A model generated the notes under the pieces. That model saw only the letters and a list, made by a program, of their open reading frames with translations, had not been told where the DNA came from and searched no databases. Below, in pieces: positions 1,957 through 5,636 of a stretch of DNA of 5,636 nt. The stretch spans positions 1 to 5,636 of IMG/VR virus record IMGVR_UViG_3300045988_015275; one strand, 5' to 3'. This DNA is from a virus. Numbering within the stretch: the first letter of the stretch is position 1; each line of letters begins with the position of its first letter. Position numbers and translations under genes: made by a program.

Positions 1957-2349
1957 GTGAGCATTAAAAGCTACATTGTAAACACCGATGGAAACGTAAA
2001 ACTTGCAAGACACTTCAAAGTAAAAGAGTTTGCATGTAAAGACGGTAGTCCGGTAGTATTCATAGACGAACATCTATACACTACTCTGGATATCTTACGA
2101 CATGAGCTGGGAAAACCAGTCATTATCACCAGCGGATACAGAACACCAGAGTGGAACGAAAAAGTCGGTGGAGCAAAATACAGCTATCATATGCGCGGTA
2201 TGGCGGCAGATATCCGGGTCGATGGCGTGAGTCCAAAAGAACTTGCCCAAAAACTTAATAGCATCGTCCCAGATGAATGCGGCATTATCGTATATAACAC
2301 GTGGGTACACATCGACACACGCGCCAGCAAATACAGAAAGGGGGTATAA
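1957..2349 (+). CDS. Zinc metallopeptidase of the peptidase M15 type (D-Ala-D-Ala carboxypeptidase / L-Ala-D-Glu peptidase fold); putative peptidoglycan hydrolase, 130 aa
   Basis: The sequence reads FKVKEFACKDG ... ITSGYRTPEWN ... SYHMRGMAAD (H-x6-D; His 2188-2190, Asp 2209-2211) ... WVHIDTR (His 2308-2310). This is the His/Asp/His zinc-ligand layout of M15 enzymes such as the phage T5 endolysin. There is no in-frame ATG before the domain. GTG 1957 has GAGGA 7 nt upstream and lies downstream of the promoter. The track start TTG 1903 is the promoter -35 itself, so it is unlikely to be coding. Confidence 0.8.
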   Translation: MSIKSYIVNTDGNVKLARHFKVKEFACKDGSPVVFIDEHLYTTLDILRHELGKPVIITSGYRTPEWNEKVGGAKYSYHMRGMAADIRVDGVSPKELAQKLNSIVPDECGIIVYNTWVHIDTRASKYRKGV

Positions 2350-2350
2350 G

Positions 2351-2473
2351 ATGGCGCTGATTTCCATTAAGGACATCAAACAGGCAATCCGCATTATGAT
2401 GCAGATTCTCGAAAAGCTTGACGAAATCTATCACGCATTGCATGATAGCGTCAACGAAAAAGAAAAGGAGTAA
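2351..2473 (+). CDS. Small hypothetical protein, 40 aa, predicted helical (MALISIKDIKQAIRIMMQILEKLDEIYHALHDSVNEKEKE)
   Basis: ATG 2351 lies 1 nt after the peptidase stop, with GGGGG (2340-2344) 6 nt upstream. The track ORF 2243-2473 is this gene plus a spurious N-terminal extension overlapping the peptidase in another frame. I do not recognise the family. Confidence 0.55.
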   Translation: MALISIKDIKQAIRIMMQILEKLDEIYHALHDSVNEKEKE

Positions 2474-2477
2474 AGCC

Positions 2478-2699
2478 ATGACGAACAGATCGTGGAATGT
2501 ACGAGACCAGCCCGAAGAAGCATTGGAAGAACTGCTCACACGAAAATACAAAGAAATTGATGGCAATTACAAAATGCTTAAAAAAGTGTCAAACATCAAA
2601 GACGCACAAATGCTAGTAGATGAAATTTGGCAAATGAAAAGCTTTGTAAACGCCATCGAAATGGAACTGATTAGAAGGGGGTATAAAAATGGCACATAG
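2478..2699 (+). CDS. Small hypothetical protein, 73 aa, acidic/helical
   Basis: ATG 2478 is preceded by AAGGAG (2465-2470) at 7-nt spacing. The track ORF 2418-2699 starts at a TTG inside the previous gene. The protein MTNRSWNVRDQPEEALEELLTRKYKEIDG... has no hydrophobic segment, and I do not recognise the family. Confidence 0.65.
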   Translation: MTNRSWNVRDQPEEALEELLTRKYKEIDGNYKMLKKVSNIKDAQMLVDEIWQMKSFVNAIEMELIRRGYKNGT

Positions 2700-2841: not shown

Positions 2842-3096
2842 ATGAAACTGAAATTCTATTCATTCCACGATGCACTGACCAACGGCTACTCTCAGCCGTT
2901 TCTTCAGAACAACAGGGCACAGGCGGTCAGAACGGCACGCTGGAAAGCCAACGAAAGCAAACCGAGTGAAATCGAAGATATCAGTCTGGTTGAACTGGGC
3001 GAGTTTGACACCGAAACCGGCTACATGAGCGAGGCAATGCCTGAACACATCGCACGGCTCATCGATCTGAAGGAGACGGCCAATGTTAAATCCTGA
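2842..3096 (+). CDS. Conserved small non-structural microvirus protein, 84 aa (possibly VP5-like)
   Basis: AAAGGAG (2830-2836) lies upstream of ATG 2842. The pattern MKLKFYSFHD...GYSQPFLQNNRAQAVR...ISLVELGEFDTETG resembles a small protein I recall as common in gokushovirus-like genomes (...PF...N...A.R...L..LGEFD..TG). The functional label is uncertain. Confidence 0.6.
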   Translation: MKLKFYSFHDALTNGYSQPFLQNNRAQAVRTARWKANESKPSEIEDISLVELGEFDTETGYMSEAMPEHIARLIDLKETANVKS

Positions 3097-3502
3097 TGCA
3101 CTGGTAAGGTACTACGGACTACCGACCGAGAGAGTGGCAAACAATCCGGGCAGCAAGACCGCGCCAACGTGGAAAGCAGTAAAGCGACCGAACGGCACTA
3201 CCGACTACATCGAGCAGCCGGAAGAAAACACATACGAAAAAATCCAGCGAGCCGGCGAAGGATACGACCTTGCAAGCGCAATCGCACGGCTGGAAGCCGG
3301 AGATACCAGCATCAAGGCAAAGAGCATGGTATACACCGAAGGAACTGAACTTGAAAGTCTGCCGAAGGATATCATGACAATGCACGAAAAAGCCGAGACT
3401 GCAGCCGAAACGCTGGAACAGCTGAAACAGGTGCAGCAGATCGAACAGCCGAAGCCGGAAGAGAAAAAGGAAGAGGTGAAGGAAAACGAACCGAAACAGT
3501 GA
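3083..3502 (+). CDS. Putative internal scaffolding protein (VP3-like), 139 aa, with an acidic/Lys-rich tail
   Basis: AGGAG (3071-3075) lies 7 nt before ATG 3083, and the start overlaps the previous gene by 14 nt. The gene sits directly upstream of the capsid gene. The protein is acidic with a low-complexity tail, PKPEEKKEEVKENEPKQ. Similarity to the VP3 family is weak by eye, so the CDS call is firmer than the function. Confidence 0.6.
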   Translation: MLNPDALVRYYGLPTERVANNPGSKTAPTWKAVKRPNGTTDYIEQPEENTYEKIQRAGEGYDLASAIARLEAGDTSIKAKSMVYTEGTELESLPKDIMTMHEKAETAAETLEQLKQVQQIEQPKPEEKKEEVKENEPKQ

Positions 3503-3527
3503 AAACCATTTCGCGCAAGTGCCACGA

Positions 3528-5144
3528 ATGGAACGACCGCGAAGCAAATTTGACCGAAGTCACCAGCTGCTGACGACCATCAACGAAGGCGAACTGGTGC
3601 CGATCTACTGCGATGAAGTGTTACCGGGTGATACCGCAAAAGTGCACCTGAACGGCCTTATCCGTATGAGCACGCCCATCTATCCGATAATGGATAACGC
3701 CTATATGGACACCTATTTTTTCTTTGTTCCATGCCGTCTACTGTGGGAACACTGGGAAAATATGTTCGGCGAAAACGACACCAACTATTGGGCAGAAAAG
3801 ACCGAATACAGCACGCCGACTTGCACAATCGGCGGCACGAGCGGCCTGAACAATGGCAGCATTGGAGACTACTTTGGACTGCCGACTGGAGTCAAAAACA
3901 AAATCAAAGTCAACGCACTACCGGCGCGCGCATACGCAATGATATATAACGAGTGGTTTCGAGATGAAAACTTGGAAGCACCGTTAATGCTAGGGTACAA
4001 AAAAACTGACGATGCGGGAGACGCCCCTGACGCGGGAAATACAACCACATACATCAACGAACCAAGCCGAACGACAGACACCAACGAGGGAAACATGTAC
4101 TCGAGAAAACCCGCAAAGGCGGGCAAGTTCCACGACTACTTCACGAGCTGTCTACCTTCGCCGTTAAAATCGGACACTGTGGAAATCAACCTGACGGGCA
4201 ATGCACCAATCAAAGGATATAAAGACTTTAATTATTCAGAACTACAGCTTCAGCAAGTAAGTCCAATCATGAGCGCAACAATCAGACCTGGAGCAGAAGT
4301 AACGGTAAGACCCAGCTACGCAGTAATTAAAGAGGGCGGAAACACCGCATACTTAGGTGCAGACCTCAGCAACGTAAGCGGCATCAGTATTGCAGACTTG
4401 CGCATGAGCATCGCACTGCAGCACATCTTCGAGGCAGATGCACGCAACGGCACGCGCTATCGCGAGTTCCTTTCCGGCACATGGGGCGTGACAAGTCCGG
4501 ACAGCCGTCTACAGATTCCTGAATACATCGGCGGACAGCGCATCGCAATCAATGTAAACCAAGTCGTACAGACGAGCCAGACGGACACGACAACCGGGCA
4601 AGCACTGGGCAATACAGCAGCATACAGTCTGACCACATGCAGCAAGGACATGGTGGACTATGCAGCGACCGAATACGGCTATATCATCGGTCTGGCAGTG
4701 ATACGAGTGGAACACAGCTACCAGCAAGGACTTGCGACCAAGTGGACACGTGGCGGGAGATTCACCTACTACGACCCGCGTCTAGCAGCACTGGGCGAAC
4801 AGCCAGTGTATAACCGCGAGATATACGCACAGGGCACGGCCGAAGATAACGAGATCTTCGGATATCAAGAAGCATGGGCGGACTACCGCTACAAGCCTTC
4901 TTACGTAACCGGAGAAATGCGGTCTAACTACAAGACGAGTTTGGATGCATGGCACTATGCAGACGATTATGACGCGCTCCCGCGTCTCTCGGCGGAGTGG
5001 ATTCAGGAAGGAACACAGAACATTGACCGAACGATTGCAGTAACAAGCGCAAAAAGCCACCAATTCTTGTGTGACATCTACTTCACAGAAGATTGGTACC
5101 GCGAGATGCCTATCTACAGCATCCCGGGCATCGAAAGAATTTAA
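3528..5144 (+). CDS. VP1: Major capsid protein VP1 (Microviridae F-like jelly-roll capsid protein), 538 aa
   Basis: The N-terminus RSKFDRSHQLLTTINEGELVPIYCDEVLPGDT, then FHDYFTSCLPSP, ARNGTRYREFLSGTWGV and YQEAWADYRY are hallmark microvirus capsid motifs. ATG 3528 is preferred over the track GTG 3519. Neither has a clear SD, so the start is uncertain by 9 nt. Confidence 0.92.
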   Translation: MERPRSKFDRSHQLLTTINEGELVPIYCDEVLPGDTAKVHLNGLIRMSTPIYPIMDNAYMDTYFFFVPCRLLWEHWENMFGENDTNYWAEKTEYSTPTCTIGGTSGLNNGSIGDYFGLPTGVKNKIKVNALPARAYAMIYNEWFRDENLEAPLMLGYKKTDDAGDAPDAGNTTTYINEPSRTTDTNEGNMYSRKPAKAGKFHDYFTSCLPSPLKSDTVEINLTGNAPIKGYKDFNYSELQLQQVSPIMSATIRPGAEVTVRPSYAVIKEGGNTAYLGADLSNVSGISIADLRMSIALQHIFEADARNGTRYREFLSGTWGVTSPDSRLQIPEYIGGQRIAINVNQVVQTSQTDTTTGQALGNTAAYSLTTCSKDMVDYAATEYGYIIGLAVIRVEHSYQQGLATKWTRGGRFTYYDPRLAALGEQPVYNREIYAQGTAEDNEIFGYQEAWADYRYKPSYVTGEMRSNYKTSLDAWHYADDYDALPRLSAEWIQEGTQNIDRTIAVTSAKSHQFLCDIYFTEDWYREMPIYSIPGIERI

Positions 5145-5154
5145 GGAAGGAGGA

Positions 5155-5180
5155 AGCCCCGCAAAAGCGGGGCTATTTTT
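5155..5180 (+). terminator. Rho-independent terminator-like hairpin between VP1 and VP2
   Basis: agccccgc (5155-5162) is the exact complement of gcggggct (5167-5174), with loop aaaa, followed by ATTTTT (5175-5180). It begins 11 nt after the VP1 stop (5142-5144). Confidence 0.65.
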
Positions 5181-5182
5181 GA

Positions 5183-5636
5183 ATGGAGACCTTATTAAGC
5201 TTTATGCCGTACCTCATGCAAGGGCTGAGCATGTTAACGGGCATCATAACAAGCAGCAACCAGAGCAGCGCCAAAAACAGCCAAGGATCAGGCAACGAAA
5301 GCACAACCGGCAGCGAGACCACAACGGGCAGCGTAACAGCGCCGCAGCAAATCGGTGCAACACAAATCGGCACGCCAACGGGTATTACCACATTTGGCAA
5401 CCAGAGCAGCGTAAACACCGCAAACGCACTGCAAATGATGAGCGGACTGCTGAGCAACCTCGCAAACGCCGGAAGCCAAGCAAGCGCCAAGAAGTACAAC
5501 AGCGCAGAAGCAGCAGCAGAACGAGCATTTCAAAAGGAAATGCGCGGGACAGCCTATCAGGATACCGTGAAAGACATGATAGCAGCGGGCATCAATCCTA
5601 TCCTAGCAGCGACCAACGGAGCAACAAGCACACCAT
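5183..5636 (+). CDS. VP2: DNA pilot / minor capsid protein VP2, N-terminal part; it runs off the window end and continues at base 56 of the circle
   Basis: ATG 5183 is preceded in frame by TGA (5180-5182), so it is the first possible start. The frame has no stop through 5636. It encodes METLLSFMPYLMQGLSMLTGIITSS (hydrophobic), then a Ser/Thr/Gly/Gln/Asn-rich segment, then the conserved AYQDTVKDMIAAGINPILA core. A strong SD, GGAAGGAGGAA (5145-5155), lies upstream of the intervening hairpin. The ORF track misses this ORF because it has no stop inside the window. Confidence 0.8.
   Translation, partial: METLLSFMPYLMQGLSMLTGIITSSNQSSAKNSQGSGNESTTGSETTTGSVTAPQQIGATQIGTPTGITTFGNQSSVNTANALQMMSGLLSNLANAGSQASAKKYNSAEAAAERAFQKEMRGTAYQDTVKDMIAAGINPILAATNGATSTP
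5582..5636. repeat. Terminal direct redundancy, right copy; identical to 1-55
   Basis: See the left copy: 55/55 identity. Confidence 0.9.

Follow-up and report, generated by a model that had tools for sequence, protein, structure and literature searches.

INTRODUCTION

In 2012, Roux et al. reported M15_3 peptidases in 5 gokushoviruses and 6 alpaviruses, proposed that these enzymes act as endolysins, and described both a Firmicutes (Faecalibacterium) affinity and a horizontal acquisition in at least two events; unknown open reading frames (ORFs) adjoin the peptidase gene in 5 of these 11 cases, and in one genome an ORF on the complementary strand lies beside it (PMC3394797). M15 peptidases are also present in most Occultatumvirinae (PMC11499846). 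Here we describe the M15 peptidase gene located at positions 1957 to 2349 (+ strand) of IMG/VR virus record IMGVR_UViG_3300045988_015275, a sequence of 5,636 nucleotides that is referred to below as the window and that represents a complete circular gut gokushovirus. The human-gut Gokushovirinae and Alpavirinae M15_3 genes (PMC3394797) and the corresponding gene in GenBank record KX513876 (Human gut gokushovirus, 5,637 nucleotides), which covers 77% of the window at 89% identity in a megablast search and has a coding sequence already annotated "peptidase M15," correspond to the window's gene, lie in genomes of a like kind, and show no essential difference from it. Both the literature and GenBank annotation thus already contain the gene, the family to which it belongs, and the role proposed for it, and a previous sequence-only reading of the window, made without database searches, was right in stating that M15-like genes had been noted in some virome-assembled Microviridae. 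What is new here is the universality of the peptidase in its lineage, its two alleles, the exchange of the cassette that carries it, a co-travelling 40-amino-acid protein, and counts that put the absence of holins on a quantitative footing.

In the human gut, gokushoviruses rank with the most abundant phages, and no lysis mechanism has been assigned by experiment to any of them. Lysis by microviruses and leviviruses typically proceeds through a block of wall synthesis, and phiX174, which like the phage described here is a tiny phage without a holin-endolysin pair, produces protein E, a membrane-anchored inhibitor of MraY whose gene overlaps another in a different frame and which does not act on murein as an enzyme. 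Unlike phiX174, the window contains no overlapping-frame membrane ORF and encodes a true muralytic-type enzyme. The M15 peptidase is the obvious lysis candidate and was proposed as such in 2012, and interest now lies in the release step and in the biology of the cassette. The lineage poses the release question cleanly, with a universal peptidase, no membrane protein on the coding strand, and a mobile cassette that often includes a 40-amino-acid orphan.

Characterized single-domain enzymes of this family are found in tailed phages. LysPM1 of Proteus phage Homer is an experimentally verified zinc-dependent endolysin of 116 amino acids with an H/D/H triad, a (W/F)xH motif, and the Streptomyces albus G peptidase (PDB accession number 1LBU) as its best structural match (PMC13461873). 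LysPM1, the M15A peptidase of Burkholderia phage ST79, and that of Shewanella phage Spp64 consist of the same single Peptidase_M15_3 domain as the window's enzyme and are 116 to 130 amino acids long; all share the zinc triad and the (W/F)xH motif, 1LBU is structurally the closest protein in each case, and muralytic activity has been shown for the tailed-phage enzymes. However, these M15A endolysins belong to phages of Gram-negative bacteria and have holin, Rz, or LysB/LysC partners (PMC5025407), whereas the window's peptidase has no membrane partner and its relatives and predicted hosts are Clostridia. A muralytic enzyme has also been verified biochemically in another microvirus, Ebor, which infects Rhodobacter and is assigned to the proposed Tainavirinae: its Gp7, a stand-alone protein of about 146 amino acids, degrades peptidoglycan and is present in trace amounts in virions (PMC11980548). 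Ebor differs from the phage described here in its subfamily, its alphaproteobacterial host, and the HHpred template of its enzyme (6SSC), and it encodes a predicted 45-amino-acid membrane protein, Gp1, that has no counterpart in the window.

RESULTS AND DISCUSSION

Family, active site, and predicted fold of the peptidase

The gene product is 130 amino acids long and comprises a catalytic domain only. As proposed in the sequence-only reading, it is an M15-fold peptidoglycan peptidase in a microvirus: the protein matched the Pfam family Peptidase_M15_3 (PF08291) from end to end (profile positions 2 to 108 of 108) with an E value of 1.3e-25 and a score of 90.1 bits, far above the cut-off of 23.2, and it matched PHROG 894, annotated "endolysin," with an E value of 9.3e-43. 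Across relatives, the entropy at codon positions 1, 2, and 3 of the gene (0.33/0.22/0.74) shows a coding-type substitution pattern. The motifs that had been read from the translation are intact, with SGYR at residues 59 to 62, the His-x6-Asp motif at H78-x6-D85, and the His-x-Asp motif at residues 118 to 120 within W116-x-H118-x-D120. H78, D85, and H118 are the predicted zinc ligands, and D120, the Asp of H-x-D, is the predicted catalytic residue. All four residues, together with S59 and R62, showed no variation among 27 close homologues or among 25 more distant ones with 41 to 49% identity; the conservation of the zinc ligands, on which the earlier assignment had been made to depend, thus extends to distant relatives.

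The sole PDB sequence match was the zinc DD-peptidase of S. albus (1LBU; E value, 1.6e-5), spanning the region from SxxR to H-x6-D. An AlphaFold2 (AF2) model based on a 25-sequence alignment had a predicted local distance difference test (pLDDT) score of 97.6 and a predicted template modeling (pTM) score of 0.90, and when it was compared with the PDB using Foldseek, 1LBU was again the top match (E value, 7.6e-5; 26% identity; root mean square deviation, 3.0 over 91 columns), with a template modeling (TM) score of 0.51 on the query. The following matches were VanXYc and VanY, at ranks 2 to 8 (VanXY similarity, TM-score of 0.44 and 18% identity), Hedgehog N-terminal domains, Ply500, LysB4, ChiX, LysECD7, and LdcB. 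The T5 endolysin, which the sequence-only reading had named for comparison, belongs to M15C and is, like VanX, only a distant fold relative; the nearest solved structure is 1LBU, the MEROPS M15A type enzyme. While 1LBU is the best match in both sequence and fold, it differs from the window's peptidase in that it is secreted, is 213 amino acids long, and has an N-terminal peptidoglycan-binding domain. Among predicted viral structures, tailed-phage peptidases matched best (TM-score of 0.95; 46 to 48% identity), with marine microvirus peptidases lower in the list.

Taken together, the modeled fold is that of the LAS / Hedgehog-DD-peptidases, the protein shows all of the sequence and structural features of M15A, and zinc-dependent peptidoglycan hydrolysis is predicted. 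With the equivalog profile for the L,D-endopeptidase MepK (NF053624), the score was 49.1 bits, below the cut-off of 185; the peptidase is therefore related to MepK but is not its orthologue, and it has no Tat or Sec leader.

Search for an export signal and a membrane partner

The sequence-only reading had noted that neither a holin nor a signal peptide is visible and that the route of the enzyme to the murein is unexplained, and a systematic search led to the same view. All + strand ORFs of at least 25 amino acids in the three frames of the circularized genome, nested ORFs included, were scored as transmembrane ORFs when the mean Kyte-Doolittle value over 19 residues was at least 1.6. The N terminus of the peptidase (MSIKSYIVNTDGNVKLARHFKVKEF) is polar and the highest 19-residue mean in the protein is 0.54, so that no signal peptide was found; a check of N-terminal hydrophobicity also revealed no signal-anchor-release (SAR) helix, and the N terminus of the second peptidase allele described below is polar as well. 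In the window, no + strand ORF reached 1.6 in any frame, and the top value, 1.42, was that of the VP2 N terminus (METLLSFMPYLMQGLSMLTGII..., positions 5183 to 5260, + strand), the one hydrophobic helix that recurs on the coding strand. Likewise, in 102 related circular genomes (46 + 56), + strand transmembrane ORFs were absent except for the VP2 N termini, which are hydrophobic in all relatives (1.5 to 1.73), and a few isolated nested ORFs. A small transmembrane protein beside the endolysin, the mark of a canonical holin-endolysin cassette, was found neither in the window nor in the 102 relatives, and the three + frames of the circular genome contain no overlapping-frame membrane protein of the kind represented by the phiX174 E-type amurin. 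No fusion of the peptidase to a structural protein was seen. As a positive control, the same script was applied to 32 long Clostridia loci around the nearest bacterial homologues, where it detected an adjacent same-strand membrane ORF in 21, often with overlapping stop and start codons; in a further 4, the M15 protein has a hydrophobic leader of its own at the N terminus, giving 25 of the 32 loci in total.

Hydrophobic ORFs are found on the minus strand, with 17 in the window and at least one in 101 of the 102 related genomes, but they were rejected as evidence for hidden holins because they are ubiquitous and are explained by the composition of the coding strand, which is 36% A and 17% T and has 38% A at second codon positions. 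One of them, at positions 5173 to 5499, encodes 108 amino acids with four hydrophobic segments that have Kyte-Doolittle means of at least 1.66. The alternative + frames are nearly free of hydrophobic stretches.

Distribution, alleles, and exchange of the peptidase cassette

The presence of such a gene had been considered probably rare, and this did not hold up. The peptidase family comprises more than 1,400 clusters at 90% identity, a relative is encoded on 333 IMG/VR contigs, and the best 120 clusters, all with at least 76% identity, lie almost entirely on 5- to 6-kb contigs. For a census of alleles in 152 microvirus loci in which most of VP1 was present, allele 1 was defined by at least 60% identity to the window's peptidase and allele 2 by 41 to 54% identity. 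An M15 peptidase was encoded in 64 of 64 relatives with a VP1 identity of at least 70%, as allele 1 in 38 and as allele 2 in 26. In addition, allele 1 was carried at 65 to 86% identity by 75 genomes with less than 50% identity in VP1 and about 38% in VP4, and the only genomes without a peptidase were six environmental gokushoviruses with a VP1 identity of 31 to 39%. By these counts, the peptidase is standard equipment of this gut lineage and not a rarity, and its universal presence despite the difference between alleles argues that its function is required.

Allele swaps were seen in backgrounds with 80 to 97% identity in VP4 and 71 to 94% identity in VP1. When the DNA of 80 loci was aligned, about 35 aligned over the whole window and about 45 only from approximately position 1800 to 2700. 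The peptidase thus sits in an exchangeable cassette that has been swapped repeatedly between gokushovirus lineages and replaced by a second allele. Since allele 1 occurs across capsids with less than 50% VP1 identity, the module seems to work whatever the capsid, which is what a soluble late enzyme would be expected to do, and cassette exchange is more in line with a soluble function of this kind than with a component packaged in the virion.

The allele 2 loci (L185 to L222) usually lack the 40-amino-acid and 73-amino-acid ORFs that follow the peptidase gene in the window; in one of them (L201:1994-2389), the order is VP8-like gene, peptidase, and VP5, with nothing between. In loci L147 and L190, which represent a close relative (VP4, 95%; VP1, 82%), the peptidase is 53% identical and the gene for the 40-amino-acid protein is 92% identical, a pattern that suggests recombination inside the cassette.

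Relatives outside the microviruses and the likely host

A HMMER search of 1.84 billion representatives returned 14,439 relatives. Outside the microviruses, the nearest relatives share about 50% identity with the peptidase and are modular proteins, with the architectures GH25 plus M15_3, leader plus M15_3 plus SH3_3, PG_binding_1 plus M15_3, and M15_3 plus LysM. In bacterial genomes, of which one per species was scanned, 51 loci were confirmed with a maximum of 53% identity, almost all of them in Clostridia, including Lachnospiraceae, Lacrimispora, Oscillospiraceae, and Faecalibacterium. The same scan revealed neither an integrated microvirus nor any homologue exceeding 53% identity, so that the host has to be inferred. 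The Clostridia affinity of the bacterial homologues reproduces the Firmicutes affinity noted by Roux et al. and agrees with the Clostridiales hosts that have been predicted for gut gokushoviruses from CRISPR (clustered regularly interspaced short palindromic repeat) spacers (PMC10159846). The strong Shine-Dalgarno sites of the window fit such a host as well. The host is thus probably of the Clostridiales type, with the Clostridia kinship of the peptidase serving as an independent host clue, and the gene probably derives from endolysin or autolysin genes that were captured from Clostridia and their tailed phages, with a reduction to the bare catalytic domain.

A few 3- to 6-kb contigs binned in Clostridia metagenome-assembled genomes (MAGs) are probably microviruses, binning being weak evidence. 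The closest cellular homologue (L002:7998-8393), a single-domain protein of 131 amino acids with 50% identity in a Lachnospiraceae MAG, lies in a tailed prophage, after the genes for the terminase small subunit and a structural protein and directly before those for the terminase large subunit and the portal.

A co-travelling 40-amino-acid protein

Directly downstream of the peptidase gene, a protein of 40 amino acids that begins with MALISIKDIKQAIRIMMQILEKLDEIYHAL... is encoded at positions 2351 to 2473 (+ strand), starting 1 nucleotide after the peptidase stop codon (TAA-G-ATG). It is present in 45 of 45 circular relatives with a conserved start Met and a nearly invariant core, ILEKLDEIYHAL, and its codon-position values of 0.62/0.55/1.05 show an excess at the third position. 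When it was used alone as the query, 52 further loci were found, all 52 with a peptidase gene immediately upstream, and in some of these the 40-amino-acid protein was 87 to 92% identical and the peptidase only 48 to 53% identical. Of 114 genomes with allele 1, 113 encode it, compared with 6 of 28 genomes with allele 2. The family consists of 961 clusters that have neither names nor a Pfam domain, and every cluster comes from microvirus-size contigs. A second gene layout places the VP8-like gene between the peptidase gene and the downstream 40-amino-acid gene.

The peptide has a hydrophobic moment of 0.71, above that of the melittin and magainin controls, its heptad a/d positions are all hydrophobic (9 of 9), and its net charge is -2; these values suggest an acidic amphipathic coiled coil more than they do a membrane peptide of the cationic type. 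If the peptidase has an allele-specific partner, this protein is the best candidate, but it is not a general export device. In one of the two cassette layouts, it is followed by an ORF for a helical protein of 73 amino acids, located in the window at positions 2478 to 2699 (+ strand). This ORF was found in 25 of the 45 circular relatives at 59 to 83% identity and has a weak coding signal (0.77/0.72/0.93), and no family match was obtained for it in Pfam, PHROG, and NCBIfam profile searches.

Proposed role of the peptidase and alternatives

We think it fairly probable that the peptidase is an endolysin that is released by a route other than a holin. The leaderless zinc peptidase, with a specificity for the stem peptide or the cross-bridge, would accumulate in the cytoplasm late in infection; the membrane would then be breached by something other than a classical holin, the wall would be degraded, and the weakened wall of a Clostridiales-type host would allow the release of progeny. 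Candidates for the membrane lesion are the 40-amino-acid partner, the VP2 N-terminal helix, and a late loss of membrane integrity. The lysis role, the cytoplasmic accumulation, and the lesion are steps that we infer; the family, the fold, the intact active site, the lack of a signal peptide and of a membrane protein on the coding strand, the exchange of the cassette, and the universality in the lineage are the observations from which they start. The peptidase is the lead gene of a self-contained cassette, in which the hairpin element, the promoter-like site, and the Shine-Dalgarno sequence described below precede it and, with allele 1, the gene for the 40-amino-acid protein follows. An endolysin or autolysin context is suggested because the Clostridia relatives are modular and have leaders or adjacent membrane ORFs. 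Furthermore, the same proposal was made by Roux et al. in 2012, and single-domain enzymes of the LysPM1 type have been verified experimentally (PMC13461873).

Several points weigh against an endolysin role. A holin, a signal peptide, and an SAR domain are all absent from the window and the 102 related circular genomes, which leaves the release step without a known mechanism. In the literature we found no enzymology, expression timing, or virion proteomics for a gokushoviral M15 enzyme, and no genetics for the peptidase. M15A domains also occur in tail-associated entry lysins, as fusions with the Gp5 OB-fold, and the closest cellular homologue, that of the Lachnospiraceae prophage, has neither a lysis cassette nor a nearby membrane ORF. 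Finally, the 40-amino-acid protein was rejected as an obligatory partner, since it is absent from 22 of 28 allele 2 genomes.

An alternative that we regard as unlikely is that the peptidase is an entry lysin, or a dual entry and exit lysin, of which a few copies in the virion would open the thick monoderm wall for DNA delivery by the VP2 pilot protein. Virion entry enzymes of this kind are phi6 P5 and PRD1 P15/P7. Such a function needs neither a holin nor a signal peptide, which fits their absence here, and M15A domains are found in tail and baseplate lysins, both in the Gp5 OB-fold fusions and in "cell wall hydrolase" proteins of 800 to 1,200 amino acids. The predicted Clostridiales hosts are thick-walled (PMC10159846), the homologue in the Lachnospiraceae prophage lies in a packaging and head module, and in Ebor the muralytic Gp7 is found in virions (PMC11980548). 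However, the amounts in Ebor are trace only, and the peptidase is a stand-alone soluble domain that is not fused to VP1 or VP2. In addition, alleles with 41 to 54% identity interchange and one allele serves capsids with less than 50% VP1 identity, which is hard to reconcile with a specific packaging contact in a T=1 particle.

A more specific form of the endolysin proposal, a two-component release for allele 1 in which the 40-amino-acid protein perturbs the membrane despite having no transmembrane segment, or else chaperones and regulates the peptidase, seems doubtful to us. The mycobacteriophage Ms6 Gp1-LysA pair provides an analogy, and the TAA-G-ATG spacing, the nearly complete co-occurrence with allele 1, the peptidase immediately upstream at all 52 additional loci, the stronger conservation of the small protein where the peptidase has diverged, its hydrophobic moment, and its restriction to microviruses are all in line with such a partnership. 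On the other hand, the net charge of -2 and the perfect heptad pattern suggest a soluble coiled coil, the VP8-like gene separates the two genes in the second layout, and the allele 2 genomes without the small gene have no substitute ORF. We are similarly skeptical about holin-free lysis of Gram-positive-type hosts by a leaderless M15A peptidase, either through precursor cleavage or with the 40-amino-acid protein substituting for a holin. If true, however, this would be a strategy undescribed for any phage, whether as a precursor-directed "protein antibiotic" like phiX174 E or with a 40-amino-acid holin substitute.

It is very unlikely that an unrecognized holin makes the lesion, be it a minus-strand gene, such as the ORF at positions 5173 to 5499 with its four hydrophobic segments, or the VP2 N-terminal helix. 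One genome of Roux et al. does have a complementary-strand ORF beside the peptidase (PMC3394797), and the VP2 N terminus is hydrophobic in all relatives. The minus-strand ORFs, however, occur everywhere and are driven by composition, and the VP2 helix reaches only 1.4 to 1.7 and belongs to a virion pilot protein. To our knowledge, the genes of Microviridae are all on one strand, which also speaks against a hidden minus-strand holin. Also very unlikely is a single-gene, holin-free lysis in which the peptidase stays in the cytoplasm, cleaves the stem peptide of UDP-MurNAc-peptide or lipid II, or D-Ala-D-Ala as VanX and VanXY do, and starves wall synthesis so that growing cells burst. Its functional analogues would be phiX174 E, Q-beta A2, and phage M Lys, and a block of wall synthesis is the typical lysis mode of microviruses and leviviruses. 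Such a mechanism would agree with the lack of an export signal in the peptidase and of a membrane partner in the 102 genomes, with the cytoplasmic D-Ala-D-Ala dipeptidases and the pentapeptidases among the members of the fold family (VanXYc and VanY were matched), and with the action of 1LBU, a DD-carboxypeptidase, on the free ends of stem peptides. On the other hand, the relatives at about 50% identity have wall-binding domains, leaders, or adjacent membrane ORFs and so act on assembled wall, cytoplasmic endolysins are normally harmless without a holin, and the likeness to VanXY exists at the fold level only.

Apart from the question of release, the bare catalytic domains of this family may have practical interest as compact lysins.

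Genome organization and expression signals

The first 55 nucleotides of the window are repeated exactly at its end (positions 1 to 55 are identical to positions 5582 to 5636), and the assembly is therefore circular, with a genome of 5,581 nucleotides and the repeat as the assembly overlap; an overlap of the same length was seen in 20 related IMG/VR contigs. All recognizable genes are on the + strand. The VP2 pilot protein (290 amino acids) is encoded from position 5183 across the contig end to position 474 and is followed by the VP4 replication initiator (575 to 1579), an intergenic region (1580 to 1956), and the peptidase gene with the two ORFs described above. An Arg/Lys-rich ORF of 38 amino acids (MAHRSGAGKGDRERFTQTAKRVKNINVRPKVSRGGIRL) at positions 2689 to 2805 overlaps the end of the 73-amino-acid ORF; it is found in all relatives, with 84 to 92% identity across new loci with a VP1 identity of at least 70%, and has no annotation in KX513876. 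Its product is probably a VP8/J-like DNA-binding protein. VP5 (2842 to 3096), the VP3 scaffold protein (3083 to 3502), and the VP1 capsid protein (3519 to 5144; Phage_F, E value of 3e-148) follow, and a terminator-like hairpin is located at positions 5155 to 5174. Strong Shine-Dalgarno sites precede the peptidase gene, the three small ORFs, VP5, and VP3.

The peptidase ORF extends from a GTG codon at position 1957 to the TAA stop codon at positions 2347 to 2349. The Shine-Dalgarno sequence GAGGA (positions 1945 to 1949) lies 7 nucleotides before the GTG, and an equivalent motif precedes the gene in 107 of 126 relatives. Most homologues have their first Met at the corresponding place (MSIKSY or MIKSY), which also supports the start at position 1957. 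In the IMG annotation, the gene begins at a TTG at position 1903, giving a protein of 148 amino acids, and is named "uncharacterized protein YcbK (DUF882 family)." We rejected this start in favor of GTG-1957, as the TTG falls inside the -35 hexamer of a promoter-like site.

That site, TTGACA-17-TATCAT with an extended -10 TG (TGnTATCAT), is located at positions 1903 to 1931, 25 nucleotides upstream of the start codon, and is of the sigma-70 type. The sequence-only reading had placed the gene behind the strongest promoter, and the site is indeed the best consensus match in the window (11/12), with sites of at least 11/12 upstream of the peptidase gene in 46 of 126 relatives. The total of seven promoter-like sites in the window, however, is not above chance (shuffle expectation, 5.8 ± 2.7). 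The site is thus a consensus match and a putative promoter.

Upstream intergenic region

The sequence-only reading had considered a cationic "LLK" peptide, encoded by an ORF at positions 1748 to 1906, as a possible lysis helper. This ORF was rejected as a gene, because its entropy values of 0.42/0.56/0.48 show no third-position excess (compare 0.33/0.22/0.74 for the peptidase) and the LLKLLK run results from translating CTGTTGAAA repeats in the DNA. A covarying hairpin element lies across the 3' half of the ORF.

This noncoding element of 82 nucleotides (positions 1812 to 1893, + strand) marks the 5' edge of the conserved cassette and contains three hairpins, at positions 1813 to 1823, 1842 to 1868, and 1871 to 1884. 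An RNAalifold analysis of 22 distinct homologues yielded 17 pairs, all kept in every sequence and 4 of them with compensatory changes (GC/UA, GC/AU at 13:9, UA/CG at 14:8, and GC/AU). The covariation score was reached by 0 of 500 shuffles, and slid controls had no compensatory changes. Rfam gave no match in the window at gathering thresholds, and when positions 1800 to 1960 alone were folded as single-stranded DNA, the result was not better than that for shuffles (z = 0.37), so that it was the covariation that revealed the element. The complementary-strand origin of G4 also has three hairpins, and by analogy the element could be the complementary-strand origin of the single-stranded DNA genome. 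Alternatively, it could be a terminator of the VP4 transcript, an option raised by the T-run that follows hairpin 3 in some variants.

The intergenic sequence from position 1580 to 1921 is 79 to 91% identical in human and pig gokushovirus GenBank records that are otherwise unaligned at the megablast level, and its conservation is therefore wider than that of peptidase allele 1. Between positions 1700 and 1810, it contains repeated (C)TGTTGAAA motifs, which might be protein-binding iterons.

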